Position numbers and translations under genes: made by a program. From the NCBI GenBank assembly GCA_973895155.1, contig OZ316891.1, positions 13,733,037-13,797,036 on the forward strand: a DNA stretch of 64,000 nt, in the 5' to 3' direction. The DNA is from Marsupella aquatica (lineage: Eukaryota; Plantae; Marchantiophyta). The notes beneath the pieces were generated by a model. That model did not search any database and was not told the origin of the DNA. It saw nothing but the letters and a program-made list of their open reading frames with translations. Within the stretch, counting starts at the first letter, position 1, and each line of letters begins with the position of its first letter. Shown in pieces: positions 21,101 through 64,000 of the stretch.

Positions 21101-24100
21101 GACCAAGAGGTCATTCACCTGGTTGAAAACACCCTTAAAGGGAAAATAATTAAAGAGACACTTTTCTCGTATCCCTGCGGGTTTTACATAACACAAATTG
21201 AATGCCTGCATAACAACGCCAATACAAGCGAATTGCATGCGCTATGGCATGCACGCCTTGGCCACCCCGGCCAATCAATGCTAACAATAATCATTAAGAA
21301 TTCAAGTGGCATTCCAATCAATACACGCCACATCCCAGTGAGCACTCCATGCAATGCATGCTCACGCGGCAAGTTAATAACAAGGCCCACGGCATCAAAA
21401 TTGCCAACTAAAATACCCCAATTCTTGGAAATAATCCATGCTGATGTTTGCGGGCCAATTAACCCACCAAGCGGACCTTTCCGCTACTTTATGGTTTTAA
21501 TCGACGCATCAACCAAATGGTCAAATGTGACCTTGCTTTCAACGAGGAACATGGTAATACCTCGCATTTTGACGCAAATCTTGCGCGTGAAAGCACAATT
21601 CCCAGGTCACCCTATTAAGACACTAAGGGTAGACAATGCATGGGAATTCACATCCGAAACGTTTGATGACTTTTGCACATCACTTGGCATAAACGTACAA
21701 TATCCTGTACCTCATGTGCATTTCCAGAATGGATTAGCTGAAGCGGTCATTAAATGCCTTCAGTTAATTGCATGCCCATTACTAATGCAGTCAAAACTCC
21801 CCGTCTCAGCATGGGGACACGCCATATTATAGGCGAATGCATTAATCCAATATCGCCCATCGGCATTTAATACCTATAGCCCATACCAAATAGCTAACGG
21901 TATTAAACCTAATCTATCACATCTTCGTTCATTTGGATGTCAAGTAATGGTCCCCATTACTCCACCCAAACGAACCAAGATGGGACCCCAACGACAGTTG
22001 GGGATATACATCGGATTCGACTCACCGTCCATAATCCGATACATGGAGCCCACAATTGGCGATGTTTTTAAAGCCAGATTTCTAGATTGTCATTTTGACG
22101 AACACATTTACCCACCATTAATAACCCCTAAAAACTCACAACCACCTTTGGAGTGGGAACGACACTCGCCATTTTGGCAAGACCTTAGAACAAATCAAGG
22201 GGAGAAAGAAGTTCAAAGAATTTTACAACTCCACAAGATTGTGGAAGAACTTCCCGACGCTTTCGTCAATACATCCCAAGTCAGCCGCTCACATATTCCA
22301 GCTGCGAGAGCATCTGCTCGCATCGAATTATCAAGTGAGCCAGCTAGTACATCCCAACCTCGTGCAAAATGAGGCAGACCTTTGGGATCCAAGGATAAAC
22401 AACCAAGAAGGCGCGGTTTATCTATACCACCTTCACCTGACATCGACCACACAGAATCCACAACTCACGAAGAGATTTCTATCCACTTCGCACACACCGG
22501 TGAGATGTGGGATAGAAATACTACTTCCATAGATGACGCTTTTGCATTAATGGTGGCAACAAATATCACTAATGAGACACCAGAACCAATATCCATTTTA
22601 GAATGCCAAAACAGACCAGATTGGCCTGAATGGCAGAAAGCTATAAATGGAGAATTAGATTCCCTACTAAGCAGACACACTTTTGGCCCAGTCGAGCCAA
22701 CACCGCAGGATGTACATCTTGTTGTCTACAAGTGGACATTCATCCGCAAAAGAAACGATAAAGGCCAAGTTGTACGTTACAAAGCACGTCTGGTAGGGAA
22801 AGGATTTACCCAACAACCGGGAATTCATTACGATGAAACTTACTCACCAGTTATGGATAGCACAACATTCCGATATCTTATCGGATTTGCCATTTTCCAC
22901 CAACTACAAATGCGACAATTAGATGTTGCAACTGCATATTTATATGGCACTTTAGACACTTGTCTATACATGCGATCACCTCCCGAGTTGGAGCAACGTC
23001 GCCGAGCTTTAGCTCAAGGCGCTAAATCGCATATCCCATATCTACATAAGATTATAACACAATTATCTCAAGTTACACCAAATGTGTCATCTACACATGT
23101 AACTCATAATAACGACACCGCTGTGTCAACCGTACGGAATACTCGCCGCGGACTAGCTATCCGTGTGTTGAAGGCATTATATGGCCTGAAACAAAGTGGC
23201 AGAGTATGGTATCAAAGATTTACTGATGAAATGATTGCCATGGGTTTTTCCCATGATGCCATTACACCATGTTTATTTATTAAACATGTGAATGATGAAT
23301 ATGTCATCGTTTCCATTTATGTTGATGACTTAAATATATTTGGGACACCCCAAATTACCGAAGATACTATTACACGTCTTAAATCAACATTTGAGATGAA
23401 AGACCTTGGACATACAAACTTTTGCTTAGGATTACAACTGGAGATCTTACCTACTGGCATGATACTCCATCAAACTACACAAACTGAAAAGATCCTAAAA
23501 TAGTTCAACATGAACCTAGCACACCCATTGACGTCACCAATGGTTGTACGTTCATTAGAAAACACCACTGATGTTTTTCGCAAGCGCGAAGAACATGAAC
23601 CTATATTAGGACCAGAAACTCCATATCTTTCTGCAATAGGAGCATTAATGTACCTAGCAAATCAGACTAGGCCAGACATTGCATTTGCCGTTAATTTACT
23701 AGCCAAACATAGTGCAACTCCCACAGCCAGACACTGGAATGGAGTTAAACACGTATTTAGATATCTACGTGGAACCACCGACACTGGGTTATTTTACCCA
23801 TTCGGCGCAAACCACGAGCTCATAGGATACGCAGATGTCGGATATCTCTCCGACACTGATACCGCAAAATCCCAAACTGGATATGTTTTTACCATAGGGG
23901 GTACCGCTTTCTCTTGGAAAAGCGTGAAACAGACCCTAACAACAACCTCATCGAATCACTCAAAAATATTAGCTCTACATGAGGCTAGTCGTGAAGCCGT
24001 TTGGTTACGATCATTTATAAACCACATCAACACCAAATGCGGCCTACAACCACTAACGAAGCCTACTAACATTTTTGAGGATAACGCAGCATGTATACAG

Positions 24101-24760
24101 CAGATCACAAAAGGCTTCATCAAAGGCGATCGCGTGAAACACATAGCTCCAAAGTTTTCCTACACCCACGAGCTACATGGAAAAGAGATCAACATTTTGC
24201 AGATTTCAAGTGCAGACAACTGCGCGGATCTCTTCACCAAATCACTACCGCCATCAGTCCATCACCGACACTGCCAGGCGATTGGACTACGGAGCGTGCG
24301 ACGCATGATGACCATGGAGGCTGCTGCTCCACATGATACTTGATGATATGCTGACTTGATGATATGCCGAGCCAGATGTTAAACCTAGTTTTACTATAAC
24401 TTTAACTTTATATTGACATTTACTACGACGAGGACTGTTAGGCTGCACTCTTTTTCCTTTAGCACTCATATTATTATTATTATTTTTTTCTCTGCTACAC
24501 TGGTAGAGCTTTTACTAAGCTAGAGTTGATAAAGGTTTTTTAACGAGGCAGTCTACCTCGATTGTACTTATATCATGTACCCCTATGAACATGATATAAT
24601 TTAGGTATAGTCTATGTTGTCTATATAGTTGTCACTATATATCCAAAGGGGAGTGTTAGACTCTACCTTGACCGGATGACCGGATCAGCCGGTCATCCTG
24701 GCACCACCATATGTACCATTACCGAGACTATACTGAGACCATTGTTATCACCATCAAACA
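18148..24760 (+). mobile_element. full-length Ty1/copia LTR retrotransposon, Bianca lineage (6613 bp)
   Basis: Identical 107-bp LTRs at 18148-18254 and 24654-24760 (TG...CA). TSD CAGAT at 18143-18147 and 24761-24765. PBS CGTTATCAGCACGA; PPT AAAGGGGAG. Bianca-type gag start (NLEKLNFPALDIDGSNYLEW), protease CIIDSATTHTIL, integrase HADVCGPINPPSGPFRYFMVLIDAST, RT YVDDL, RNaseH YADVGYLSD. Confidence 0.96.
19677..24343 (+). pseudogene. gag-pol polyprotein of the Bianca copia (gag, RGG tract, CCHC knuckle, PR, INT, RT, RH), disrupted
   Basis: One reading frame broken by stops at 20409 (TAA), 20439 (TGA), 21830 (TAG), 22370 (TGA) and 23501 (TAG), and by one frameshift near 21015. Confidence 0.92.
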
Positions 24761-25046
24761 CAGATAAGTGTTTTCCAGAGCATTTTACCTCATATTAATA
24801 TTTCAGGATGATGTGTGTGGAATCATCTTCTCTAATGTGCTAGATATAGACTTACTGCACTGGGTGCATATTTTTTTCCATTAATTATTTTATGCGCAAA
24901 CCCAGATACCAGTACTTAGCAATCCAATGACCATTGTGCTGTTTTAATTGACTTGATATTTATGGTGTTAGTGTTACATGAACAAACCCAATAACAGATG
25001 GAAATGCTCTAAGAGCAAAACTTGAGACTCCTTATTATATAAATAC

Positions 25047-25941: not shown

Positions 25942-26492
25942 GCCACTGCAATACATGGATGGAAGCACGGGACCAGTGGACAATAACAGCCCCTTGAAAC
26001 TATTGGGCTAGTGACAATCATAGCCCCTCAAAACTCGAGCCAGAGCTCTCGTTTTTTACGGGCATATATTATATCAGACAAGCCTTCCTTAGACATTACT
26101 CTCTCTCTCTATATATATATACAAAAACATAATTATTCAATCCTGTGGGTTTCATTCTCGTTCGAGGATCCAAAGGGATCATTTCATTGATTGCGACCCA
26201 TTTGAGTAGTGACCCAGCTCACAAGGGAAAGATCGTCCTCAAGTGAAAGCCCCAGAACGCAGAAGATCACAAAGCGTCACGACGGGAGCGATAGGATTCC
26301 TTGATCGGGGCCTCTCCCCTCCCATTCTCCACACCTCGGCCGGAAAGGGCGATGCGAGACAGAGGATTCGTTGGACGAGGAGGAGGTTTGTTGACGGAAG
26401 GGGCTGTTGGGTTTCGCTGCCTTGGAAGAATTGCCCGTTTGCTGAGCTGTTGTTGTGGAGTTGTGGAGTCGGTAGCAGCGTAGTTGGTAGCC

Positions 26493-27347
26493 ATGGTGGT
26501 GATCGCTACGGGAGTGGTGTCATCTTCGCTGCTGTCCATCGAGCACATCTCGCAATCCCCATGCGTGGCGGCGTCGTGTGTTTCGGAAGGAAAGCTACGG
26601 CAGCAGCAGGAGAGATGGGTTTCTTCGTCGTCTTCTCTCAACATTTCTTCTCGCTCAAGCAGCGTCGTCCATGCTCGCTCCACCTCTTCGCTTTCTGCAT
26701 GTGCATCTTCTCGTGATGCCGACAACTACGCGATTCGGAGGACGAATGCTATCGGGCATGGCGATGCTCGAGCTAATGCTAATCTGCCGAGGCCGGCGAT
26801 GGGTACTCGCCCGGCTGCGTTCGTCAGTGGTATCAATGCCGGGGTAGTCCATGCGGCAATTGCGGAAACTGCAGGGGAAGGGCTGAAATGGTGGGAGAAA
26901 GGGGGTGCTCCAAACATAGTAGATGTGCACAACACGGAGGAATTCGTGGAATCCTTGTCTGCTGCTGGTGATAAGCTTGTAATTGTGGAGTTCTATGCAA
27001 CCTGGTGCGGCTCATGTCGAGCACTTTATCCCAAGTTCTGCAAAATCGCAGCGGAGTACAACGATATTAACTTTTTGAAAGTGAATTTTGACGAAAATAA
27101 ACCTATGTGCAAAAGTCTGAATGTGAAGGTTCTCCCATTCTTCCATATCTATCGCGGAGCCGAGGGGCGCCTAGAGTCTTTCTCGTGTTCTCTGTCGAAG
27201 CTTCAAAGATTGAAAGATGCAATTACGAAGCATCATGATTGCGGTGAGGAGTGCACTCCTCCCGAGGAATTAGATGGTGCTCTCAGTTCTTTGCTGGACA
27301 AGACCTCAGCTGATCAATCTGCAGCAGCTGCAGGATCCTCAGAATGA
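26493..27347 (+). CDS. ACHT: Atypical Cys/His-rich (Lilium-type) thioredoxin ACHT1/2-like, probable plastid transit peptide, 284 aa, intronless
   Basis: LKWWEK...[29 protein letters not shown]...[43 protein letters not shown], with a Ser-rich N-terminus. The first ATG is at 26493; the ORF track starts at TTG 26484. Confidence 0.93.
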
Positions 27348-43078: not shown

Positions 43079-44392
43079 TCATGAACATCCAAATTCGGTT
43101 AACCCGTGATAATCCAAGTACCAATCCACAAATGTTTTGAGACCAGTGTAAGGATCGGTGGTTGGGTGGTACCCAAGCTGGGCCCTCGCGAGACTTATAT
43201 CAGCATACATGAAGGGAACACTGCCATGACTGGGCATCTCAATGACACGAACCTTAGCTTTAGCTTGTAGATGTTCCTCCAGGATGTTCAGCAAGTTGAC
43301 GATTGTCACTGGAGACGGACACCCAAGGTTAAAGGTGCGACATTGGGCACGGCTTGACTTCCTACCGCCACTGCCTGTGCTCTGCTCCGCACTGTCAATA
43401 GCAGCAACACATCCTTGCACAATATCGTCGATGAAGGTCCAGTCACGAACCAAATCGGCCTGATTGGGACCCTCGTAAATGGTGATTTCCTTCCCACGAA
43501 GAATATCTCTAGCAAAAATCCAGTATGCCATGTCTGGTCGCCCCCACGGCCCATACACAGTGCCGAGTCGTAACGTGGTGCTGGAGAGCCCGTGCGTGTG
43601 ATTGTAAACATGGACCAATCCTTCCCCTGCCTGTTTGCTAGCTGCGTAGAGACTCGCTGGCTGATCGGATCTGTCACTTTCTGAGGATGGCAATGACGAA
43701 TTTAGTCCATAAACTGAACTTGACGACGTCCACACGAAAGCCGGCTGGGGAGTTGCTCTTCTGCAGGCTTCCAGGAGAGTCACTAGCCCTGCAATATTGT
43801 TCTGGACGTACGCACCTGGATTCTCCGTGGCATTACGAATGCTGGGTTGAGCGGCCAAATGCAACACGTGAGTGCAGGGGATCATGTCAAATAGCTTCCT
43901 GAGAAGTATGGCATCGTTGATATCTCCGCGGATGACAAACACAGAACTCTTCTCCAGTATTTCCAGTCGCTCGCGCTTCAATGCGAGGTCGGAAGAGTTG
44001 CTCATATTGTCGAGTCCGACCACTCCATCACCTCTTTGTTTCAAAGCTAGACAAGTGTGAAGGCCTACAAAACCTGCTGCGCCAGTTACAAGAACTACGA
44101 TCCCTCTCTCCCGTCTCACTTGGCAAGATTGGTGCACTTTCGACATCCAATCTTGGTTTTGCCACCTCTCCTGCGCCCTGGCCTCTTCATTCAAATCATC
44201 GCGGGCCTCTCCACAGGCTCTGTTGTCTGACGAAGAATCCCCGCTGAATAGGAACGGCATGACACACGCCAAAACCACCAAAACCGAGATGCAGAGAGCA
44301 AGAAAAATTCTGTATTCTGCGCATTCTACATCACCTATCAGCCGAACCTGTCCCATGAGATCCTCGAATCCCATGACTATACTTGAAATCAT
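43079..44392 (-). CDS. GAE: UDP-D-glucuronate 4-epimerase-like (GAE family, extended SDR, type II membrane anchor), ~437 aa, intronless CDS
   Basis: TM segment IFLALCISVLVVLACVMPFLF; VLVTGAAGFVG; HVLHLAAQ; SSSSVYG; QPASLYAASK; TVYGPWGRPDMAY; FVDWYLDY. The start ATG is uncertain (44392 or 44374). Confidence 0.9.
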   Translation of the reverse strand: MISSIVMGFEDLMGQVRLIGDVECAEYRIFLALCISVLVVLACVMPFLFSGDSSSDNRACGEARDDLNEEARAQERWQNQDWMSKVHQSCQVRRERGIVVLVTGAAGFVGLHTCLALKQRGDGVVGLDNMSNSSDLALKRERLEILEKSSVFVIRGDINDAILLRKLFDMIPCTHVLHLAAQPSIRNATENPGAYVQNNIAGLVTLLEACRRATPQPAFVWTSSSSVYGLNSSLPSSESDRSDQPASLYAASKQAGEGLVHVYNHTHGLSSTTLRLGTVYGPWGRPDMAYWIFARDILRGKEITIYEGPNQADLVRDWTFIDDIVQGCVAAIDSAEQSTGSGGRKSSRAQCRTFNLGCPSPVTIVNLLNILEEHLQAKAKVRVIEMPSHGSVPFMYADISLARAQLGYHPTTDPYTGLKTFVDWYLDYHGLTEFGCS

Positions 44393-45949
44393 GCTGCCGC
44401 TTTGTGGACACACTTATGCAACATCCAAGCTACCCATCTGTTCCGCTTTCTTCGCACTGAACTCCTAAACCTGTCTCCATCATATCAAACAACATTACCG
44501 CCAGTGGAACACCCTAAGTTCTATGCCCAATTCACAGCACGAGCGAGTAGCCCTTTCACAGTCGAATCGCGGTGGGATACTGTCGCAAAAACCTGTACGT
44601 AGAATGCCGACGGTACGATCCAAGTGACAGCAATCTGCAGTTTTACAGAAAACTAAATCCATGGCAACTGCAAACTTAGCGGTCGTCGAGCAGCCTCTTC
44701 TCCATAGACCAGATTTTGTGCCGATTATTCCTGTCCCGTCCTTTCCACCGGAAGAGGCATCGACCAGAGCTCCGGCAAAAGAGCCTCTCAAAACGAGGAC
44801 GCAGGAAGCATGTCAGACGAACAAAAGGTAAGTGTAAGCCAGTGTCACCGACCAACGAAACCCGCGAGCAGAGAAGTGCCCTGCGACCAGCGAAAAAAAT
44901 CCACAAGGCTGATCTGCGGGAGGGAGAACGCGAAAAGGGAATTCTCCTTCCAATTTCACGACCTATTCCGTCAACTACGCCACCTACTGTGGGCTCCCTC
45001 TGCTCATCGAGGCGACACTGCAGGTTGAGATCTCCCGCACGTCCCTCCAGCCACGCGACCTGAAGATCATTCAAACGAGCCCGATTCGTCGGCCTGCGCA
45101 GCGCTTCTCTCGCACAGATTCTCCACAGAACTCTAGGCTGTAGCATTCTGCTCCCTCCGACGCTCGTGCCAGAAACGAACTTACAGCAACGCCGTCGCTC
45201 CGTTGTCTTCGTAATTTCGTCAGTAATGCGATTCAGTACAGTAGTGACTGTGTCGTTCGTCAGTCCACGCTCTCCTGTACATTGCATTGCAGTTATGCAG
45301 TTATGCAGTACAGTACAATGATTGCCAAAACTCGCGGGAGGGTGCCGTTGAACGATTTCCTAAACCCCTACATACAGTAATTAACGCTCTCTAAGTGCAC
45401 GCTCTTGGGAAGACGGATCTGGTATGCACTAAACCAGGTGTTGCATTCCTTGATAAACCCACACCCCCTACAAGTGCACTTATTGATGCGTGTACTTGAT
45501 TCAGATCCCTTTGTTTGAATATAATCAATAAGGGTTCACAGGGGTGTGATACCAAGTTGTGTTGGAGATCTCAGATTGAGCACCACAAACTGAATGAACA
45601 ACAAGAGGGACTCAAAACTCCCCATGCACATTGTATATGCTATATTATACTCAGACCAGATCACACAAAGAATCTGTGAAAACAAAGTGTTACTACATGA
45701 CAACATTCTGTGTCTGTCCAATGTGTTGTAAAATAAAAAGAAGAAGTGGACTACAGTTCCTACATCCAGACTACACAACATCTTCAGTGTGGACAGAATT
45801 AAAATTAAGGCCCACCCCTCAACTAAGGAGCTTCCTGGCTGGTCCACTTCACCCTTTGCTGCCTAAACATTGCATTTCCCTCCCTAAGTGCATTCATAAC
45901 TCTACTAAGAATGTGCATGCATTTATCAGTAAATGGAAATGCAATTTTT

Positions 45950-50032: not shown

Positions 50033-53000
50033 TGTGGTGCGTCCCATGGCTCCCCAAACCCAAGAAACCCCCCCGCACAAGCCGATTCCTGCAAGTTTCG
50101 TGCTCGGCGAGGCCGTTTTCGCGGCTTAGCGGCATGGGACGCTGCTAACCTCCTTCTACTACTACTATTAACATTTTACACACATATACTGGACAGATCC
50201 TTCATCGGGTCATGAGATACGTAGTCGGCCTAATCCAGGCCTTCTCTTGTCCTTCCCTCCTGTTGGTTAGGTATATTTGAATTCCGCCGCCGGAATGATC
50301 CCCAATTGGCTTGGTTAAGCCGCTAAGACCTCTCTCAGCTCGACACATCCAACTCTCACTCCCTTGCTTACTTCCTTTCTTCTACTTGTTGATGTGGGCA
50401 CTCTTCACACAAGTTAATGCGACACACAAATAGCAAAATGACTCCTTCTGACTGAGTTATACCATGCACTTGCAATACAAACAATACGTCTCATACACAA
50501 GCTCTGCAAACTAAGCCGTGAGGCCAACTCTATTCAATTCTTAGGTATGAGGAAACATGAATATACACAAGGGTCACTGTATAACTAACCGAGAGCTTCT
50601 CTTACTACTTGATCCCAGCCCTGCTGGTGCAACTAAAAACTTGCTAAAGAAGAGGCCCGAAACTCCCCGCAGCCCAGGTACTTATCCTGGCTGTGGATCC
50701 GCCTGATTCCTTGCAGCGTAAGCCTAATCTACCTACTATAATCTTCCTAACTATAATCTACCTATGTACAGCGAGGCAGGAGCACAAGTGTTGCCCTTAC
50801 CCGTGGATCCGCAATCCCACTAATCTAAGTGTCAGGGCCGTCTCCTGGTCTTGATCCTAAGTCTAAACTTGGAGATCAGCGCCCGCCCTACCCACTCACG
50901 CCTCCTACCTCCACGTCCGCCCTCCCTAAAAGGGACGGCGCCCTTACACCATCACGACATCGGTGGCTGGTCCTCAATGGACGCCCCCAACGCTTCCTCC
51001 GCAGCCATTGCCGTTGGTCCGTCCTCTGACAGATTACCTGCCGCTGACCGAGTCAACTCTTCATTGGCCTGACTGGGTCCACCCTCGGCTTCGGCCTCTG
51101 ATACGGCTACGGCCTCCCCGGCATGTTCTAGTGGAGGATCCGGTACCTCGGCTTCATTACTGAGCATTTCGGTTTGGGCCGTGACATCCCCGCCTACTAG
51201 GGTAGTTGGATCTTCTGCCGTGACCCTGCCCGTTGTTGGTGTTGGGTTTTCCTCCTTGGTTACAACGGCTTGAGAAGCCGTGTTACTCCCTGACCCCGGA
51301 GGTTTTCGCTTCTTCTTCTTCCCTGTTTCGGCAACTGGTCCCTTCCCTTTGCCACCTACCTCCGGCACCGGGGCATGTGTATCGGCTTGTCCTTTGGCCA
51401 ATACCACTCCTGGTAACGGGGTTCCCACAATTGGAGTTGGAACAGATGAAGCTAAGCATTTGAATACTGCAGCCTATTTCTTCAGCCGCTCTGTTTGATT
51501 GTCGGCCCGCCGCTGTAAGTTCTCCATCTTCCGCGTGCTTTCCTCCAACTCCTCCTGGGTCTCATCCAGGTCCTTGCGCGCCTCCTCCAGCTCCTTATTG
51601 GCTTCCTCCAATTCTTTCTTCAAGGTAGCCCTCTCCTCCTGGGTTGCTCTTAGCTCCTTGTCGAGCTCTACTACGACCACAGACTCCATCTTATTCATCT
51701 TGGCATAAGTCTGGTCGAGCTGGTCATCCTTCTCACGCAGGTCGGCCTTGAAGCTGGTCGTCAGGGATGCAAGCTCCTGCTGTAGCAGAATAATCCCTTG
51801 ATAGGATTTCCCTAACTCGGCCTCCTTCTGCTCCAGGGCTCCGCGGATATCCTCGAGCTCCCCCTTTAATGCCCTTTCCCTTCTCTGGGTCTCCGCCATG
51901 GCCCGGTTGTTGGCTGCTATGTGGGCCTCCTCTGCGTCCCTCAGCTCTTGCTTCCACTTCTCCCTCTCCTTGATTACTTTGGCCAACTCTCCTTGGGTCC
52001 GAGTCAGTTTATTCTCGATAATCCGGTTATCAGACTGTGCGGTATCCAATTGCCCCTGCATGATGTTTAGCTCATGCCGCTTAATCCGCAGCTCATCTTG
52101 GGCTTTAATTTCTTGGCCGCCTTCAGGTCTTCTACTTTGGCTTCCCTTGCCCTAAGCCGACAGATGACCTCGTCCTTCTTGCTTCTTTCCAAAGCCACCG
52201 CTTCTTCTAATTGGCGCTTCTCCAACATCTCCCTCTGAAAAAAGGGTCCCTGCTCCAACTCCTCCCCAAAGATGTTGAGTGCGAGTTCTCCACACATCTC
52301 CCCGTACTCCATGGCTCTATCTTTAGCATAGGTGGAGTAAGTAGACGTCATCGGCATCAACCACCGCGGCCTCTGCTCCCAAGCCGCCCTGCGGATTTCT
52401 TCTATGGTGACAAGAGGGTTGCTTCTTTTTTCGGCAAGCCGCCTGATGTCCTCCGGCCAATCTCCTCCTAGTAAATCTTTCTCCTTAGCTAGGGCTGCCT
52501 TCTCTTCCTCCCTAAGTCGCTCCTGAAACTCTTGTGCCGTCTGCTTTATATATGCCGTCAAATCTCGGGGGAGTAATATCTGGTGGGGGAGACTCGGGGC
52601 TACTCTGCTGGTTGGGGTCCCCTCGAACTACTCTTGGAAGCGTGGGAATAAACCGGCCACAGGTCCTTACTCCTGGAACATGATGATCCGACCCATATCC
52701 GGAGTTATTATTGCTGTAGTCCTCCACCGCCTCCTCTACTGCTTGGATTCCCGGCTTCCCCCTCTGCCCCTCTAGTGCTGCCGTGAAGATGGCCTCACAG
52801 ATCACGGGCTCTGGTTCCTCTGGTTTCCAGGCTGTCATCTCTCTCTTCTTTCCGCGGGGAGGAGCCTTTGGCTGCTCTGCCTCTGATTCAGGGCTTGAGG
52901 CTCCCACGTACATTCCTGACTTGTGTTCCGGCCTAAATCTCTCCTTGGTTCCGATAAAGGGGTTTTCCCCTTTGAGTCCGCTTAGGCCGACCTCTGGGGC

Positions 53001-54775
53001 AGCGTCCTGTATCGGTGCCATTGCCGTTGTCGTTGCCGGAACCAGTGCCGGTGCCGTTCTCTTTTCCTTCTCCAGCAATTTTAGCAGATTTTGCATGCCT
53101 GGTTGCTGCATCGGCAAGTCTTCTTTCCTTGGCCGAAACACCCGCTCGATTGTCGGACTGTCGGGCTGGTTGGGCTTCTCTGGTGCCGGCCTTTGCTCCG
53201 GAACCTTCTCCGGTGCCCTTGCCGATAGGGGAAGTACTGGGGCAAAGATTTGACTTCTGGCATACCGGCACAACAGCGGCATGTGATAGCCAAGCCGGGA
53301 CACGCTTCCCATGCCGATCACCTGCTGTTCCTCCTTCAAGATTTTCTTCAGTTGGTTGAGGAGGTACCCGTTGTAATCCCGGCTTGGGTCTGGCCTTTCT
53401 GCCAGGTAGACCTGAGCCTTGCCGATCTCTGCCCTCGGCAAGTTACAATGCATGGTCACCCGCAAGAAATCGATCATCTCTCCGATGTGCGGGTTGGTGC
53501 AGGTGTTCCGGAAGAAGCCATTCTTTGTTGATGGTCCTGGGAACGACCGGAACTCCTTGTCAGGTAAGGTCTTCCTGGTATCAACCTTGGTCTTATTACC
53601 CATCGGCAAGCCAAACACCTCGGCAATCACCCGGGGAGTGAGATAGAAATCCTTCCCATACACCCTCGTGGAATTGGTCTCGGGTTCCCATGATCCCACG
53701 AATTCTAATAAGTCTGAGTCCGGCACCTCCGGCTTCAGCCATGGTAATCTTACGAAGGCTTCCAAGCCGGATCCGGCCATGAAGCCCTGGTACTTCTTGG
53801 TCTGCATGGCCGTAAAGCATGCATCCTCCTCCCGTGCAAAGTGTAATTGCACTTCCTCCGGTAGGGTCGCCGCCCAGCCTTTCCAGGTGTCATCGTTTGT
53901 TGGAATGGCATTGATAGGATCAACCTCTTCCTCTTCGGCTTCTCCCTGCCTCCTGCTCTGCTGCTCTGCTGGCTTCCTAGGTGCCGCCGACCTTGTTCTT
54001 TTTGCAGGGGTGGCCTCTTTGTTGTTGTTTCCTTTCCTCTTCATCTCGGCTGCCGTGGATGTTTCTCCTAGCAAGGTTGCCTTCGTCCACCCCTCCGTGT
54101 TACCCTTCAACTCCCAGTGTAGGTCGTTGCAGCGATTGATGGCTTCCCGGATGCCGACGATTCTGTTTTTGCAAAACAGAAGGTCGTCGAGCTGATTGGC
54201 AGTAGGAGTCCACAAGAACTCGGCCTTGATAAGTTCTCCTCCTAAGAAAGCCGTCTTCTGCAGTTCCCAGAGCCGAGCGAGCTCCTACCATTCTCGAGCT
54301 GCTCTCTCCGATTCTTCGTCCTCGTAAGTCCTAACGTACTCACTTGCCCATTCGAACAGGCATCCCCAAAAATGTGCTGCTTGATTGACGTTGCTCATAC
54401 CCTCCTTGAGTCGATCGTTGGTATCTGTTCCCACCTAGAGTGCTTGCCTAAGCAGCTGACAATAGTTGGTCTCCCGTAGTCGTCTGCCCAGTTCGTGCTT
54501 GCAAATGAGCCACCATTCCTCGCGAGCGGTCCTTACCCCTCTCCTCCTCTGGTCTTCCCTCCCGTTGGTCACCCCTAGCCGCCGACGCTTAGCGCGCCCT
54601 AACCCTAATCGTGTTCTCTCCCCCGGCGTCCTTACTTCCGGCCTCGGCCCACGTTCCATAGTCACCCTTAATTGTTTATATTTTCCTTGTTTTTGTTCCT
54701 ATACTAAGGTGTTTCCAGGGTACACTCCTGCTTTACCATGTAAACCGGCCTAGTGATTCCTGGCTAGGCATCACA
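50033..54775. mobile_element. 4743-bp integrase-type insertion (TG...CA, 5-bp TSD) without terminal direct repeats; giant solo LTR or deleted Gypsy (Tat/Ogre/Athila-like) derivative
   Basis: TSD CGGTG at 50028-50032 and 54776-54780. Termini TGTGGTGC / GCATCACA. No gag/pol motifs seen. Confidence 0.8.
50952..54659 (-). pseudogene. ~1230-codon accessory ORF: plant mobile domain (PMD)-like region + low-complexity linker + long coiled coil
   Basis: ORF-track pieces 54435-54665, 52512-54215, 52067-52561, 51474-52061 and 50952-51428 join via 3 in-frame TAGs and 2 frameshifts. EFVGSWEPETNS...LTPRVIAEVFGLP resembles the PMD motif W.PET...T...V...LGLP. Confidence 0.65.
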
Positions 54776-56878
54776 CGGTGCGCAAATGTATTCCAGAACC
54801 CACGCTGCAAAAACCAGCGAGAGAAGAAAAAACAAGCCCTAAGGGCGACAACAACACCATCACACCAAGGAGCCCAAGCCAGGCCACCATCACGCCGCAA
54901 CATGGCATCACAACAAATGAGGCACCAAGGCGACTAGCAGACTTTGGGCCTCAAGTGGATCTGAATCAACCAGCGGTCAACCGGAAGACAGTGGGTCCAA
55001 ACACTAGCCGAGAAAGTCAGGAACCAGGTCCAATAGATCCAGACATTGAAGTCCCAATGACTCTCGATACTATAACACTCATGCATCACAAAAGCTCTAT
55101 TCTTGTGAGCAACACACGGACTATAAGTCACAATCTCAATCATTCTACTTTTGCTACTCCTGTAGTTGATCACAAGGCTGAAACTAGCCTTGTCATCATC
55201 CCGGTCATCATCAAGACTAAGTTTCTCTAAGTAATGGTAGCAGTGAAGGCCTAAAGTAGTATAAATCGCATGCATGGGTAATATTGTCAGGGGTAGTAGG
55301 AATCCTATTCAGAGTATGACGGATCATAACAGTGAGTTCAGTCAACGTCCTCTGTAGACTCCGTGCTAAATGGTAACATTTTTTGTGCGTTGCATAGTAG
55401 CATGAACATTCACAATGGCCCCATGAAGAATGAGTTGCAGGGGGAAGTGAGTAGCATTATCCTGGTAGGTGCGTTGTCGTCTTTTAATCCAATGCTATGT
55501 ATCATCTGATGGATGGTGAGGAGAAATCATGGGTTTCTCTCTTGTGATCGGATGGCAGTGTCAACTTTTCCAAAGAAGGGACAGCCAATAGCCTTATGCT
55601 GCCCAGTACCTACAACAGATAGTTCAAGCTGATTCCATCTGGTCTGCAATCTAGGGCACTCAAAGAACATGTGTTCAATAGTTTCAATCTGCTCATGACA
55701 TGCAGTGCACTTCCTGTCACCAACATCCCACTTAAGAGCCCCAAAATTGGAAAAGAATCCAGCATTGAGTACCTTCCAAAAATCTAATTTGACATTAGGG
55801 GAAGACCAGCCAGACCAGAGGTGAATCCACCGCCTTTGCCAGGTCTCAGGAGAGTCCAGAGAGAACCACCTCCTATTGAGTTTCTCAGTAGGTGTGGAAT
55901 GTTGTTGCAACATCAAGGCCCAAGTTCGAGTCTGAAGAGTCCACCCTGTTTTTCCTCCTTAGTTTGGTCCATCTCCAAATCCACCCATTGGTGTTGGTCA
56001 AAGTGTCAATAGTGGGTCCCCGAGATCTGTGCAAAATCTCCAAAACAAGTTGCACCAATCGTAGTGCATTGCTTCTGGTCGATCTCACGGCTCCCTGAAA
56101 CTGCTCATTAGTCTTCCATCCAAAGTCTTGAGTAATCAAGTCAGCAACAATAAAGATTTTTCTCGTTGCCATGAAGCTTTTGAACTCATGTTTCTCTCTG
56201 TCTGTACTGTCATTCAGCTGCCGGCCTGCTTATGAGAAGAAGTAGCCGCTCAATAGATAGGTGGATAGGGATGTTCCCAATGGTGACCTCAAAGTGAAGG
56301 TTTCTGTGAGTAGATTCTCATCCTCTAAGCAAACAATTAAAAGTAGGAGCTGAGGCATTTTTAATGCTTGGGAGTAGAAGGAGGACGTTGCTGGGATCCC
56401 ATAACTTGCGCTCTCTCTTATGTGGGCCCTTCCTAGCATTCAGTCTGATCAAGGACCTTGCCATGTGAATCCACGCAGTGTCGAATCCACTTAGTAGCTT
56501 GGTGACGCTGCACATTTTGCAGGCCTGAGCTTGTAGAGCAAAGGGCCTTATGGCTAGGTCTCCCTCCGCGCCTCAAAGGGTCGGGTGATTGTGTCCCATG
56601 CAACAAGAGCAATTTTGTCAGCTCTAGGGGCACTCTTGCCCCACAAGAAGATTCTGCAGAGTTTTTCCAGCTGCTTGTATCCAGTTTTTTGGATGTTGAG
56701 CAACATAATATGGTAGATAGGAATAGCCCTAAGCACATGCTTAAGTAGGACCAGCCTCCTAGCTTGGGTGAGGGTTCTGTTGGTCTAGTGCCTGAGTCCT
56801 TTCTTGACTTTACCAAGTAGGAATTCAGTTTCCTGGTGAGGCCTTATTTTATTACCGATTGGACAACCAAGGTAGGTA
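54776..56878 (-). mobile_element. LINE (L1-clade) 3' fragment: RT C-terminus, zf-RVT, 3'UTR; degenerate
   Basis: YLGCPIG (~56875-56855), HVLRAIPIYH...CRIFLWG...LVAWDTITRP, FWKVLNAGFFSN...CTACHEQIETIEHMFFECP. Frameshifts and stops are present. Confidence 0.85.
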
Positions 56879-58104
56879 CACTACTACATATTTGCCATTT
56901 TTGCGAAGGTCAATTACAAGGGGATAAACGCACCGCAAAGCGCCATTCATCGCTCATCTTGCGATGCAAACCGCATCTCAAACTGCGACACTGACACTCT
57001 CGCAACCATTATTTGCGAAACCAACATCTTCGCAAATATTTGCGAAACCAAATATCTCGCAAAATGTTTCTGAACCTTTGAGCATTCTACTTAGTACCGA
57101 TGTTTACCGTTTCGCAAACAACTTGCGACGCCGATTGCATTGATAACGTTGCAATATTTGTGTTATCGGAAATCGGCGTGCGATGCAAAATTAATCGCAA
57201 TACAGTGAAACTAAGAGAATCGCTAGTTTGAGAGGTGGTGTGGCTCGCAAAATCATGGCGCCTTAGTGGTTCTCTTTAGAGAAGGCTTGAGTTTTGGAAA
57301 GTTGAGATGCGCGTTGCTTCGGAATGTAGCGATGGTTTTGGGATGGGATCTAGCAATGAGGTAGGGATCGTTAATGTAGCCATTAGGTTGAGATGGGTGG
57401 GGGTTCGCAAAATGGTTCGGAAATTTGGTTTTGGGGTTTGTCAGATTTAGAAAGGGCATGGGACAAGGAATGGAGGGAGGAGGGTCAAGGAGGGAGGAGG
57501 GAGGAGGGAGGAGGTACACTTTAGGAAGAAAAGGAGGAGGAAGGGTTGACTTAAGGGGGGACAAGGAACAAAGGGAGGAGGGCGGTTTAGGGTGCACAAG
57601 GAAATGAGGGAGGAGGGAGCGTTCCTACCTACAGTTTAGGGAGGGAAAAGGAAAGGAGGGAGGAGGGAGGGAGGGTGGAAGGTATAGGTTTAGGAGAGGG
57701 ACAAGCCAAGGAGGGAGGAGCATAGGTTGAGGACAGTGAAAGGTGGAAAAAATTGAGGGCATGTATAGGTTTTAAAAAGGAAGGGGTTGAGACAAGGGGA
57801 GGAGGGAGGTGGGTACAAGTACTAGAGAGAAAGGCTAGGGGGTGGGAGAAGGAAAGCTACGAGGAGGAATGACTACAAGCGACATGAGTTTTCTTTTCAT
57901 AAAGTGTACCAAAAGGTGTGGGAGTGTACATAGGACTGTGGGGATGGAAGATGTAAAAAAGCCACATTTAAAATTGATATACTTACAAGATTGATTTGGG
58001 CAAACATAAATTTATTAATAATTTAGAAACACATATTTCTCCAACCAAGAAGAGAGATCCTCATATGTTCAAATCTAACTATATATCCACATTACATATA
58101 CCCC

Positions 58105-61100
58105 TCAAACTTGGTCCTCATCCTCTTCAGGTTGGGACACAACCAGAATATCTGGCTTTTCCCCAACAACTGAACGAGATCGTGGCACATATGTGATGAC
58201 AAGTGACCATTCCTCTAGGTTTGGGGGGTATGAAATATAAAAACATTGTTCCACATGACTTGGAAAAGTGAACGGCTCCGATGTTTGCCAATGAGATGGC
58301 TGGAAACTAGTGGCAGATGTCTTTAGCCATGTAAATCCACGTGCACACTCATCTTGAAGCACGGTGGGATTGTTACCTGCAAGGTTCACTTTGAACCACT
58401 TGCACTTGAAGACATAGTCTTCAAACTTTGATTGTGCATCATAAGAGATCACTAGGATCTCCTCTATCTTTCCATAATGTGGCACAACATCTCGAATAAT
58501 ATTTGTGTCATGGCGATTGCTGCGGGAATCTTGAGAGAATTGTCCTTGAACTCCACAATCAAAGGTACGACCCCTCTTCTCATCAAGGAAAAAAACCCTA
58601 AAATCCACCAAACCATAAGGACATGTTACAAAAATAGGCATAACCATATAACAATTAATATCACATGCCAAAAAATTGTCTCTTCAATATATGTGGGTGT
58701 ATTACACATAAATTAAAATCACCATAGATGAAAGGTTACTAAGGTACTTGGAAATAACCTGAAATGTCTCCCTTGTGTCCACATTGCCGTCCTTGTTGTA
58801 ACCATTCTCAAGGGACCATGAACAATGGTACGGACATCATCTGTGATAGCTGGAAAATGTAATAATTCTCTCCCCTCGCTACCATGTCATCCACCTCAAC
58901 CAACTTCTCCTTCATGTAGTCATGGTACTTTGGAAAGATCCTTGGTCTTCTACTGGTACTTATGGCATCCTCATAGAAATCCCTCCATTCTTCCATGATA
59001 GTGTTGTTACTCAACATGAATGTGGTTAGTTGTTTCAACTCCACTGGTGTCAACATGCAGGTTTTGATAGCACCTGTTAAACGATCCTCCTCATCTTCCC
59101 TCTCCTCTACCCAAGTACGGGGAGAGGTACGATCAATTGTGGCCAATATGTTACTGCAATAGAACATACTCTCTGCTGCCAAGTATCCTGTAGCCATGCT
59201 TCCCTCAACTCGTGCCCGGTTACGTACATAACCCTTTAATACTGCCATGTACCGTTCCAACCAATACATCCACCGACAATGCACAAGACCAGCAATGGCC
59301 ACCTCATGAACAAGATGAACAAGTAAATGCACTTGGCAATCAAAAAAGGAAGGAGGAAGGGCCTTTTCTAACTTGCATACCACCTCTGCTGCCAGTACCT
59401 CCATTCCCGGGATCTCTTCACAGTATATCTCCTTAGAACATACCCATCTCAATAGTTTTCCCAATGACCAATGGCATCTTGCACTTCTGAACTTGCCAAA
59501 CCTATAATTATGGCCACGGGCAATATATGTTGCAATAACCGATGATAGTCATGCGTCTTGAGATACATTGGCCACTTATGATTGTCCTCCATCCCAAAGG
59601 CCTTCCGAAGATTGGCACCATAACCAGTAGGAAACCGCATGCCTCCTATGCGATTCCTAAACTCCCTTCTCTGGACAACAGGAAGCACCCATGGGGCTGA
59701 AGGTCGATGTTCTATCCGTGTGATAGGATCAATTGTGACCCATACATCTGGATGCATCTCAAGATCCTCACAAGCCTCCCTGAAGTTAGTGTCATTTTCT
59801 CCATAGAAAGCCTTTATCAAAGCCTTTCCCACATTTCCCTCAATGTGCATGGGGTCTAATAGATGGCGGATCTTCAACTCTCCCCAATAAGGCAAAGTGG
59901 TTAATATACTCCATCTAGTCAACCCGCTACCCTCAAATTGCATGGGATCCTCCGGGTTTGCCACTCTATCAGCCAAGTCTTTCCAATGTGCAAAAGTTGT
60001 TGGCTCTGGTATATCACGTTCATCACCAAAGGGCATATCAATGGAGGAAAATAGTAGTGGGTCAAACCTCATCTGATGGCCCATTGGCAGAAACTTTGTA
60101 TGCCCAAGATAAACAATCTTGTGAAGGTGTGATGAGTACTTGGCTATATCACCAAGACTTGGGCCACAAGTGGAGCAAGCCTTGTAGCCTTGGGTTTGCA
60201 ACCCACTCACAAAGCCAAATCCTGGTCAAATAGACACACATAATGTAGAATTAGCACATGGAAATGATGGGATAACATGCATTATCATATCATGCTGGAT
60301 GTAAACAAAAAAAGTGTCGTAGTTTCATAGTTCTTACCTGGGTAGTCATGCATGGTCCACATACAAACCCCTTTTAGTTAAAAAACCCGTGGGGTACCCC
60401 CTGTAGTCTTTCGCCCGTCATATGCCCATATTCCATCCCATAATTTTTGGAGTTCCTCAACCACTAATGCCAAATAGGTGTCCATGTTCTTCACCTTCTT
60501 TGGCCCTGGGATAATCAAAGATAGCAATAAAAAGCCCTTTTTCATGGACAACCATGGTGGAAGGTTGTAATTCATGAGAACCACCGGCCAAACTGATGTA
60601 GGTCTCCCCTTCCCTCCAAGTGAATGAGGGCTAACCGCATCTGATGCCAACCCAAGTCGCACATGCCGAGGGTCACGCTCAAAATCTGGCCATGTTGACT
60701 TCACATGTTTATGAGCAGGAGAGTCAACTGGTAATCGCATCACACCGGGCTCCGAACGATGCTTCTTGTGCCATACCATCAACTCGGCCAAGTCAGAACA
60801 TCTATACATGTGCAACAAGCAAGGAATAATGGGGAACCAACGAACTGCTTTTCTTGGCACCTTCCCGGTTAGCATGTTTGGGTCATACCGTGGCTCATGA
60901 CATACTGTGCATTCTGTCATATGGGCTTTGTCCCCATGAAATAATATGCAATCATTCACACAGGCATGAATGATATGGTAATCCATGCCAATGGATGAGA
61001 GAATCTTCTTTGCATCCTTCCAAGTTCCAGGCAACACATTCTCCAAGGGTAACATCAAGTCATGACAATATTCAAATATGTCTGATAACATAGAATTGCT

Positions 61101-62926
61101 TGCCTTATGTTTGGCCTGAATGTTCAACAACCCCAATATGGCTGACAAACGACTCAACCGAGCACCCTCAAAGATAGGTGTCCGGGCATGTTCCTCAGCC
61201 TCCTTCCATTGTTGTTGTCCCTCTGGAGTATGTTGTGGTCGTGGGTCATTTTGGGGGGCAGCTCCTTCAACACTAATGTCAGGGACACCATCTTCAACAT
61301 CAACACCAAACCAATCAACCATGAAGTCATCCATGGCTCTGTCCTGGTCATGCATGACCTGGTCATCAGTCTGAGGTGTTGCTTCCTCATCACCATGATC
61401 ACTTACATCATTACTTGATGAGGAATCATCCTCTGATGGTTCTCCCTCTTCTGGCATGCCCATCTCCCAATATGCTACTCTCAACCTTCGTGGTAACATT
61501 TGTTGAGATGGTTGCACATTCTACGCACGACACAACCAAAAAACCTCTTGATGTATATTTCACCAGGTACAACAAAAATAGACTTCAGACCATTCATTCA
61601 AGACAAATTAACAATCAGTTTTAAGGATTGATTGCATGCATTCACATTAAGAACTTAAGTGAAGGGCCACACCAAAATTATACTACTCCAAAATGAGGCC
61701 AGAGGACATGTATATAATGAAAAGTGTGAAGTACACACAAGGTACAAGAGGATGTATGACATGGCTCCCTAATCCCACTCATAGTGTGTGAATAACTCAT
61801 CTCCAGCTCTAATAGTCCTAGTGGCAAGAACTAAGCAATGGTCCTTATGATATGTCGTTCCATATGGTGCCGGCATTGGGCCATCAGTAAAAACCCACTC
61901 ACAATTGGCCCTACGCTTGGGTCGAGTCCCCACAGTACTATTTATAAAGCGAGCAATATTCCCATTACGTACGGGATCACCGTCTATCACCCGCTGCTCA
62001 CTATACCTTCTAGTGCTACCATGAAAAGTATCCATCTCTAGGGCATATGTTTTCCACTCAGGATGTTGTGCAAGGATCATGTTCCAGTGTCTTCTCTGAC
62101 TTGTAGATGGGTCCACCATATGGGAACAAAGTAGGACCCTCTCTACCACGAGCACTTGACCCACTCCCATCATCCATGATGATATCCTCACAAGCAAATA
62201 CTCCATATCCGTGTCTCTCTCCAAGTGTGGAAGCTTTCACAATCCAACGTCTACCCCAAACCACAATCTCCTCATCATAACCGGGAAAATAAGGCAAGCC
62301 AAGAGTCATAGGATCCCAATCTTTGATGATAGAGGCACACTTGCCAGTGAATGAACAAATGCCCCACCTACCCTCAACTAGTGTTCTTGATGGGTCATTG
62401 GGTGCTCGTGGCCTCCTCTTGGACTGGGGCCTGGACCGGGGTCTTTGTGTCTCAGTGGGCACATGAGACTGTTCCTCTTCAGTCCCATGATTGGTACTGA
62501 TCCCTACACCCAAGGCTTGTGAAAGTGCATTGCCTATAGCATCTAAAACTCCTTGTGATGGGACATAGGGTGGTGGTGTCACCGGTCTACGCATACTGGA
62601 TCCCTATTCCATGCAAAAACCCACAAAAAACCATATGTGTAAACATTGATTCACTTATGAAAATATGAGGGAAAAAAGGCAAACAATTGAAATCCATGTA
62701 CCATATGGGATGAAGAAGCCCCCGGAGTAAGACCCCTGTGACGTCCATATCTCTCAATATGTTGAGCACACACATAAGATTTTTGAGAAACTTGGCCCAC
62801 ACATCTGGTGCACTCACAAAGTCTCCGGGGAGGACCACGAGGACCGGTAACCTCAGGTTGAGGAGGAGGGGGTACATCATCGGAGGAGGAGTACTCACTA
62901 CTGGATAGTTCGGGGGAGGATGACAT
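58105..62926 (-). pseudogene. CACTA transposase (TnpD-like: transposase-associated Zn motif, Tnp_21, DUF4218, DUF4216), disrupted
   Basis: Inferred exons 62926-62702, 61520-60338, 60221-58759 and 58597-58105. Motifs: CECTRC...HIERYG, IHACVNDCILF, RLGLASD, SVWPVVLMNYNLPPW, WTMHDYPG, RHLLDPMHIEGNV, LKTHDYH, PPSFFDCQVHLLVHL, RWMYWLER, FKCKWF. A TAA at 60378 and frameshifts near 59500 and 58860 disrupt it. Confidence 0.9.
61769..62603 (-). pseudogene. SET-domain protein exon inside the CACTA element (one frameshift near 62095)
   Basis: WIVKASTLGERHGYGVFACEDI ... LFPYGG ... YALEM ... IDGDP..NGNIARFINS ... ANC ... LATRTIRAGDELFTHYEWD*. All canonical SET motifs are present in order. Confidence 0.88.
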
Positions 62927-64000
62927 ATCCACTGCCACATTACATTGCATGTAGGGCATGATTAGAATCCCTCTCGGCCAAAAAATATCCTAAAACTAAA
63001 CTACAAAAACCCTTTTTTGTTTAGCATGAAACCCAAAGGAGAGTGTCATGCACAAAAATATCACATTGTCACCCTTGGGAAAATTGTAATGGTCTAAGCC
63101 CTGAATTAGGTTAGTGAATTACCTGAATGAGACCCGGGCTCAACAGTGCCTATAGGTCGTGTGGCTCAATGAACATGAGCCAAATCTAGAAGTAGAACAG
63201 AAAGCCTTAAAGGATGGGTCCAAGGCCTTAATTCTCTTTTTCAAAATTTTCTGATTTTCCAAAATGTCATAAAAAAACAACACAAAAAATCATCATATAT
63301 TTAATATTTCCTGACCTTGGACTTTCACACCATAATTAACACAATGCTTTAGACACAAGTTTTTTCATAATTAATATTTCCAATTTGACTCCTCAATATA
63401 AGTCTCAACATTGGAGTTTGGGCTCAAAGATCACCAACAAATTAAATGTTACAAGAAAATATCCTCTTTATGAACAAAGTCACTAACAACATCAGAGATC
63501 AGAAGCCTTCACCCATCACAAATCAACACTCAATTGCCCTTGGCAGCCTATGTTTAATCGCTAATTGCCCATGGTCCTATACCCTTTACGGGTTACATGT
63601 TGTCATTTTGTCCATCGCAGCTGGTCGCAACTCGCCCATTGCAATGTGCCTATCATAGCTCACTCCTGAGCTCACTCATCTTCCATCATGGATTGTTGTT
63701 ACCCAACTTTGCCCTTTGCCTTTTAAAAACCTAAGCTTAGTGTATTCATGAAGCTTGTGCATCCAAAAGCTTCATGAATTCATGAATCCTGTTTTCAAGA
63801 TTCTTTAATCTTGATCCAAGATTCTTTGTCATGAATTCATGAAGGGAATCTGGCATCAAGTTTGGGAATCTTAAAAAGAGAGAAAAATTGCATACAAACA
63901 TAAAGAAAATAATTAAAAGAAAGGTTACTCAAGACAAAGAAAATGACAAAAAAAGGAACAAAAAATGATTCAATTAAGACAAAAAGAGTTATGGATGAAG

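Follow-up and report, generated by a model that had tools for sequence, protein, structure and literature searches.

A SET-domain gene carried by CACTA transposons of bryophytes

The 64,000-nucleotide stretch of Marsupella aquatica DNA analysed here (the window) carries a SET-domain gene among the exons of a CACTA transposase. This raises the question of whether the gene is a piece of a host gene caught by a transposon or a gene that the transposon keeps, and of what its product might do. A preliminary description had proposed a transposon-encoded chromatin writer. The gene has a SET fold, lies within the element, is repeatedly linked to the transposase and is under purifying selection, and the window holds a dead copy of it.

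The SET domain (PF00856) is encoded by two overlapping reading frames on the minus strand. The frame at 62058-62603 holds GYGVFACEDI and PYGG, and the frame at 61769-62236 holds IDGDP, NIARFINS and ATRTIRAGDELFTHY, followed by EWD and a stop. All of the SET motifs that had been quoted from two overlapping frames are therefore present on this strand. HMMER, which had been proposed as a check, finds the SET domain above the cut-off of 22.4 bits. The downstream frame alone scores 31.7 bits (E 2.2e-07), and the read-through protein with X at the break gives an E-value of 3.8e-07. A first model, built from 19 sequences, had low confidence (pLDDT 49) and was set aside. The model of P0010, an intact relative, was built from 74 aligned sequences and has a SET fold with a pLDDT of 92.9. 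This model matches ctPRC2 and COMPASS Set1 with a Z score of 12.1 (rmsd 2.5-2.7 over 124-133 residues), and Foldseek matches it to SET8 (E 1.7e-07). The matches to Set1/COMPASS, PRC2, SET7/9 and SET8 are tied (Z 11.5-12.1, about 16-23% identity), no class is clearly ahead and therefore no substrate follows from the fold. Viral SET models also match the fold of the family. A PDB sequence search with the single read-through protein gives no hits; among solved sequences, the family profile matches LegAS4 best (E 5e-06).

The domain had been described as a minimal SET. This is correct in that the SET protein has no Cys-rich pre-SET or post-SET region and ends three residues past the catalytic Tyr, but the core follows a conserved flank of about 45 residues, which is folded confidently in the P0010 model. 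The Pro/Arg-rich linker of the SET exon is a possible nuclear localisation signal. Host plant SDG classes (E(z), ASH1, TRX, SUVH and ATXR5/6) were compared by flanking domain. The 11 SET-bearing proteins scanned contain SET only, with none of the CXC, AWS, Cys-rich pre-SET or post-SET, SRA and PHD domains of host SDG proteins. The next cluster by features in the ESM Atlas is a 207-aa SET family found mostly in Basidiomycota, which could be a fungal transposon-borne counterpart and is a lead only.

The single frameshift that breaks the SET gene of the window copy, and that had been noticed before, results from 4 bp inserted near 62096. Related copies in all six public runs examined (X1-X4; X1, X2, X5, X10) lack the four bases, so the change is an insertion in the window copy. 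At 61951 the window has the Arg codon of NIARFINS where other copies have a Gly codon. The family motif is NIAG[YF]INS, with Gly in 66, Ala in 8 and Arg in none of the 74 aligned sequences. The Arg appears to be peculiar to the window copy and, because the other copies and the family never have Arg here, the canonical-looking RFIN is regarded as a coincidence. The transposase is broken as well. It contains an in-frame stop at 60378-60380, with a different base at 60380 in other copies, and it differs from those copies by 1-bp indels near 59469 and again near 58864. With the SET insertion, the transposase stop and these indels the window copy is dead, and the biology therefore concerns the family.

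The features of the element are listed in Table 1. Transposase_21 (Tnp2), DUF4218 and DUF4216 (the last just under its cut-off), together with the terminal inverted repeats and subterminal repeats, identify it as a CACTA (En/Spm) transposon. The Pfam pieces and the terminal repeat at 56879 bear out the placing of the SET gene inside this element, on the same strand and between exon 1 and the catalytic exons. The Pfam-matching Transposase_21 piece of exon 2 spans 60378-61520. The element is inserted into the decayed end of a LINE ORF2. Its single located end is at 56879; no second end is found within the 64-kb window, and the other end probably lies past 64000.

Table 1. Positions of the SET gene, the transposase and the neighbouring features in the window.
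Feature	Position	Strand	Details
First coding exon, 75 codons	62702..62926	-	ATG at 62926; GT donor at 62701, phase 0
Predicted 98-bp intron, exon 1 to SET exon	62604..62701	-	GT...AG, in frame
SET exon	61769..62603	-	Pfam SET; 45 homologues; intact relative P0010 pLDDT 92.9; SET-fold matches. Pro/Arg-rich linker, conserved N-flank, SET core to ELFTHYEWD-stop; broken in window copy
4-bp insertion shifting SET frame	62096..62100 (place approximate)	-	Absent from related copies
Spacer, SET stop to transposase exon 2	61521..61768	-	3' part of predicted 1181-bp alternative intron
Transposase exon 2 (Transposase_21/Tnp2)	60338..61520 (lower limit approximate)	-	PF02992, E 2.1e-32
Transposase middle, remaining Transposase_21 and beyond	59449..60225	-	PF02992, E 1.1e-08
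Transposase DUF4218 part, frameshifted	58808..59548	-	PF13960, E 3e-32
Transposase C-terminal DUF4216 part	58105..58683	-	PF13952, E 4.8e-06, slightly below cut-off
Subterminal palindromic repeats TGCGA-N(9-13)-TCGCA	56956..57200	.	4 of the 6 matches within the 64-kb window, at 56984-57199
Terminal inverted repeat, downstream end of element	56879..56893	+	CACTACTACATATTT on +; matches downstream ends of L021 and L026
Degenerate LINE retrotransposon ORF2 end	55527..56878	-	zf-RVT, E 4.5e-08; coding frame reaches the terminal inverted repeat

Related elements are found at 37 metagenome loci (L001-L037). These loci count as one family, because 36 of the 37 are of one Sphagnum type and several represent one insertion sampled twice. 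The upstream ends of five Sphagnum-type loci start with CACTACAAC (CACTAC), and the far end in these relatives lies about 3.4 kb upstream of exon 1. In one locus the element is complete, at about 9.9 kb (L026:6075-15967); it has CACTA ends on both sides, the downstream one with one change, and encloses the SET gene. The TGCGA-N(9-13)-TCGCA repeats are again close to both of its ends. A 3-bp target-site duplication (ACA) flanks it, an observation from this one element.

The Sphagnum-type element also contains a second, divergently oriented gene of several parts in the upstream 3.4 kb (L026:6740-8639, minus strand). This gene is present in L004, L006, L013, L016, L033, L035 and L037 as well, and is about 70-85% conserved among copies. 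It has no meaningful Pfam or Atlas match and no homologue inside the window, and is possibly a TnpA-like factor. A repeat of 820 bp (L023:2190-3010; ends of L024, L028, L031, L032 and L010) is shared by several Sphagnum-type loci, is inserted in or beside the element in various copies, and is probably another abundant repeat.

The SET family is large. The read-through protein has 45 relatives, the named ones coming from seven Sphagnum species and Calypogeia fissa, and no gene of a host SET class is among these named matches. One 90% cluster of the family contains 360 sequences. When representatives at 50% identity are searched with the family profile, 132 match with E<=0.001, of which 43 are at 1e-30 or better and at least two of the weakest (P0203 and P0227) look unrelated on inspection. 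The 20 profile matches that were looked up include six Riccia sorocarpa models, one from Calypogeia and one from Ginkgo biloba. A quick tree of 77 rows, built from sequences of the family, groups the window with two Calypogeia and three named Sphagnum sequences in a clade of 17 rows (SH-aLRT 99), and the Riccia families and Ginkgo branch farther out. A pattern search of viral contigs gives 40 matches, none of them a relative of the SET family. Distant members that likewise lack the motif III His, P0230 (Ginkgo biloba Gb_21150) and the long-branched P0165 and P0171 (Calypogeia), may lie on transposons or be domesticated.

The first coding exon begins with a Ser-rich and acidic stretch, which is followed by a CxCxxC-x11-H-xxxxG zinc-binding motif. 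This motif is also found in Sphagnum, Calypogeia and Riccia gene models. Exon 1 of the window has no Pfam match; its homologue P0147 matches Transpos_assoc weakly and under the cut-off (E 0.031). Annotated proteins of Sphagnum and Calypogeia use the join of exon 1 to SET, and Riccia models also place exon 1 on SET. Transposase exon 2 begins at 61520, directly after a second AG acceptor that lies 1181 bp on from the donor and keeps the frame of exon 1. The same phase-0 donor fits both the SET and the transposase acceptor, in the window and in Sphagnum-type loci. In the 16 loci inspected the donor GT is kept, and most also retain the SET acceptor AG, a few having a mutation there, while the intron bodies differ between loci despite the kept splice sites. 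L003 retains the donor and the SET acceptor and ends before any transposase match. The conserved splice sites and the gene models suggest that one promoter very probably gives two products, a zinc-finger SET protein (Zn-SET) and a zinc-finger transposase (Zn-transposase). This probable sharing of exon 1 goes beyond the preliminary description. Among the joints displayed for the public-run contigs (15 of 51 in one set) none fits the predicted introns; these contigs are not on record as RNA, and the result speaks neither for nor against splicing. A read-through fusion of SET and transposase, as in the models P0022, P0150, P0173 and P0177, was also considered. These models are treated as gene-prediction chimeras, because their SET domains are mostly incomplete and the SET stop is kept in 16 of 16 loci.

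The SET gene occurs beside the transposase again and again. Tnp2 lies directly downstream of SET in 22 of the 37 metagenome loci; 12 others end too soon and three are interrupted copies. An exon 1 homologue is found upstream of SET by tblastn in 16 of the 37. The order exon 1, SET, Tnp2, DUF4218, DUF4216 recurs in the Sphagnum-type loci. Three Riccia models (P0150, P0173 and P0177) have SET or pieces of SET joined to Transposase_21. The window family, with 70-78% nucleotide identity to the Sphagnum-type family, and the Riccia models provide independent support for the linkage. Identity to the window is 82% for SET and 74% for the transposase in the Sphagnum-type family, and 36-45% and 42-46% respectively in Riccia; by this measure the two genes diverge in step.

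Selection was estimated as pairwise NG86 dN/dS. Between the window and the metagenome loci dN/dS is 0.11-0.17 for the C-terminal half of SET (nine loci), 0.28-0.51 for its N-terminal part (seven loci) and 0.08-0.13 for the transposase (seven comparisons). For L003 against 15 Sphagnum-type loci it is 0.28-0.37. Within the Sphagnum-type family dN/dS is 0.77 for SET (105 pairs), and 0.51 and 0.73 for pieces of the transposase (three and six pairs). A value of 0.77 within the family is expected, because copies decay after insertion. Of the 19 loci scanned from the SET acceptor, five have an unbroken frame and a further one reaches the end of its contig, which shows that the SET gene is not kept in most copies. 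These estimates indicate that in the active lineage the SET gene is selected almost as strongly as the transposase. The gene was said beforehand to be the transposon's own, a view that a recent, neutrally evolving host fragment confined to this copy would have contradicted. It is instead present in many copies, linked to Tnp in several families and under purifying selection, and the dN/dS values and repeated linkage leave that view standing. The SET gene is almost certainly standing cargo of the transposon and not a captured fragment of a host gene.

For the role of this cargo we propose the following. The SET gene is an old accessory gene of a bryophyte CACTA lineage, kept by purifying selection beside the transposase. 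One transcript would be alternatively spliced onto the common zinc-finger exon 1 to give Zn-SET and Zn-transposase. Zn-SET would act as a SAM-dependent lysine methyltransferase, and its zinc finger or a partner from the transposon would bring it to the element's own copies. A histone mark on or near these cognate copies would then oppose host silencing by PRC2/H3K27me3 or H3K9 methylation, so that the element stays expressed or mobile. We give this whole chain, including the anti-silencing role on histones, a probability of roughly 45%; its targeting and its mark are proposed by analogy only. A wider version is unlikely: that a sequence-targeted histone methyltransferase of a new, His-less SET class, spliced onto the zinc finger of the transposase, protects cognate elements by the mark that it writes, and that this old family, spread from liverworts to Ginkgo and perhaps horizontally between leafy liverworts and Sphagnum, helped CACTA elements to their leading share among the classified repeats of peat mosses.

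The substrate might not be a histone. In this case an active enzyme would methylate the transposase, another accessory protein or a host silencing factor and so tune transposition. SET7/9, which is also known to methylate non-histone proteins (PMC10889763), is among the tied best folds, and the common first exon would place SET with the transposase. Most of the best matches are nevertheless histone enzymes. All eight relatives that were checked have a SET core with a net negative charge of 1 to 7, which is weakly suggestive of a basic substrate and counts to the same small degree against this alternative. We consider it quite unlikely, although it is the best placed of the alternatives.

The proposal also depends on catalysis. 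In SET enzymes GxG, the aromatic residue of motif II, and the Asn, Glu and Tyr residues have catalytic roles. The family has motif I GxG and motif IV ELxxxY with the catalytic Tyr. Among the 74 aligned relatives GxG is conserved in 70/73 and 71/74, the motif II Tyr/Phe in 74/74, the motif III Asn in 66/74, the Glu in 64/66 and the final Tyr in 60/65. Motif III departs from the canonical RFINHxCxPN (PMC3980110): the family has AG[YF]INS, in which Asn is kept and Arg and His are absent. The NS in place of the usual NH that had been pointed out in the window copy extends across the family, with Ser at the His position in 71 of 74 relatives. Because LegAS4 also lacks the His, the absence of these residues lowers the chance of activity without removing it. 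A catalytically dead or weak SET could instead be kept as a binder, which reads a histone tail to find insertion sites or serves as a decoy against host SET proteins. Such a binder fits the absence, throughout the family, of a post-SET and of both the Arg and the His of motif III. Against it, the motif IV Tyr, the motif III Asn and GxG persist in relatives with as little as about 25% identity, and an active enzyme without the His exists. Motif III of LegAS4 reads YINFS and LegAS4 methylates H3K14, so the His is not strictly needed and activity is plausible. From its conserved residues the family SET is probably an active methyltransferase, and we regard the binder as improbable.

The enzyme might instead write a repressive histone mark, limiting the element itself or shutting down neighbouring genes or host defence genes. 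Chlorovirus vSET writes a repressive mark on H3K27. By sequence and by fold, the best matches of the family include PRC2 chains, and across the alignment a small or aliphatic residue stands two positions ahead of the catalytic Tyr, a feature that permits di- and trimethylation. The PRC2 matches are, however, weak (E 0.003) and tied with enzymes of activating marks, and the plant transposon accessory factors VANC and TnpA are described as anti-silencing. This alternative has a low probability, the lowest of the three that assume a maintained gene. A recently captured and neutrally decaying host SET fragment (transduplication) is extremely improbable, despite the broken window copy and the dN/dS of 0.77 within the family: selection almost as strong as on the transposase rules out simple transduplication, with dN/dS of 0.11-0.17 between families in the C-terminal half of SET, the same gene position in families only about 40% identical, no host SET class among the named matches and solved host SETs at about 20% identity.

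SET domains have been described in other DNA transposons, and the idea of a SET writer encoded by a transposon is less unprecedented than the preliminary description implied. The accessory gene PAG2 of the red-algal Plavaka transposon, a member of the EnSpm superfamily, has a SET domain (bioRxiv 10.1101/2025.02.11.637652). PAG2 and the bryophyte gene share PF00856 as an accessory gene of an EnSpm-superfamily element. As far as the two can be compared by description, the bryophyte gene differs in having SET without another Pfam domain, in belonging to a land-plant CACTA with Tnp2, DUF4218 and DUF4216, and in its predicted common exon 1. The PAG2-type cassette, which has SET with a DNA methylase domain together with PAG1 and PAG3, is not seen here; PF01555 is absent from the family members scanned.

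SET genes are also reported in HarbingerS and in MuDR elements of Phytophthora (PMC12730594), and Helitrons with captured SET are reported in a preprint on Bostrychia (bioRxiv 10.1101/2025.02.11.637652). These are likewise DNA transposons with a SET of their own, for which an epigenetic action has been proposed. They differ from the bryophyte element in belonging to other superfamilies, and the descriptions consulted report neither a shared-exon layout nor a biochemical test.

TnpA and TnpD of maize En/Spm, and of Arabidopsis EN/SPM3 and EN/SPM7, are made from one gene by alternative splicing (PMC13547354; bioRxiv 10.64898/2026.08.24.746577). The bryophyte element is predicted to resemble them, in that one CACTA transcription unit would yield both the transposase and an accessory regulator. 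As TnpA is described there, it is a DNA-binding factor derived from the transposase, whereas the predicted spliced partner here is a SET-fold protein, and the Sphagnum-type element has in addition a separate gene on the opposite strand. VANC of VANDAL (MuDR) is an accessory protein acting on the epigenetic state of its own element, a role that the bryophyte SET may share; unlike it, VANC is described as a sequence-specific anti-silencing factor and not a SET protein.

Primate SETMAR also joins a SET domain to transposase-derived sequence. Domestication has made SETMAR a gene of its host, and its transposase is inactive (PMC8704517), whereas the bryophyte SET is cargo of an element with many copies and would share only a small N-terminal exon with the transposase. 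Legionella LegAS4/RomA lacks the motif III His in the same way, and compact viral SET models match the fold. These proteins have about 22-29% identity to the family and a different context, and no descent is claimed.

The literature consulted contains no land-plant CACTA with SET; Repbase or preprint supplements may hold a prior description. The differences from the known cases are the land-plant host, the canonical Tnp2-type CACTA, the stand-alone His-less SET and the predicted common exon 1. A histone writer encoded by a land-plant transposon, if this is what the gene is, would be a strategy unlike that of the sequence-specific binders TnpA and VANC. PRC2 is described as silencing transposable elements in bryophytes, which makes Marchantia and Physcomitrium suitable for testing it. 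With about 200 residues and no motif III His, the compact SET family also offers a clean biochemical target. CACTA is the most abundant classified type of repeat in Sphagnum, with 6.8% of the genome (PMC9946827). Hundreds of Sphagnum protein records belong to the SET family, and many of the models annotated as 'SET domain-containing protein' in Sphagnum, Calypogeia and Riccia are probably transposon genes.

The window element (56879-64000) and the Sphagnum-type family (L001-L037) have similar termini and splice sites and 70-78% DNA identity. The window SET is about equally close to its relatives in Sphagnum (70%) and Calypogeia (68%). Leafy liverworts and Sphagnum share the bog habitat. Liverworts and mosses split about 473 Ma ago (PMC9946827), and such DNA identity and similar termini across this split are a hint of transfer. 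Horizontal transfer between leafy liverworts and Sphagnum is a tentative reading of these sequences, somewhat more doubtful than not. It is not claimed here, because dS is about 0.9-1.2, which is near saturation, and the comparison covers the elements alone. Sphagnum paralogues have Ks peaks at 0.41 and 0.64 (PMC9946827), which could mean slow rates if the duplications are old and would then leave room for vertical descent.

Several other features are found in the window. A host gene for a UDP-glucuronate 4-epimerase is present at 43082-44413 (minus strand). Its identity is 90% to the protein of Calypogeia fissa and 64% to that of Marchantia, which points to a leafy liverwort as the most likely source of the window. 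A candidate first exon at 26484-27344 (plus strand) belongs to what we take to be a plastid thioredoxin-like protein. The region 51474-54284 (minus strand) has long open reading frames, one of 590 aa followed by others of 186 and 225 aa with a coiled coil. These have no Pfam match above the cut-off, and a different mobile element probably carries them as cargo or accessory genes. By appearance, 18145-24761 holds a near-complete Copia-like LTR retrotransposon, with gag-, integrase-, RT- and RNase H-like frames whose motifs were recognised by eye. It is bounded by direct repeats of 111 nt that are 99% identical, which suggests that its insertion is recent.
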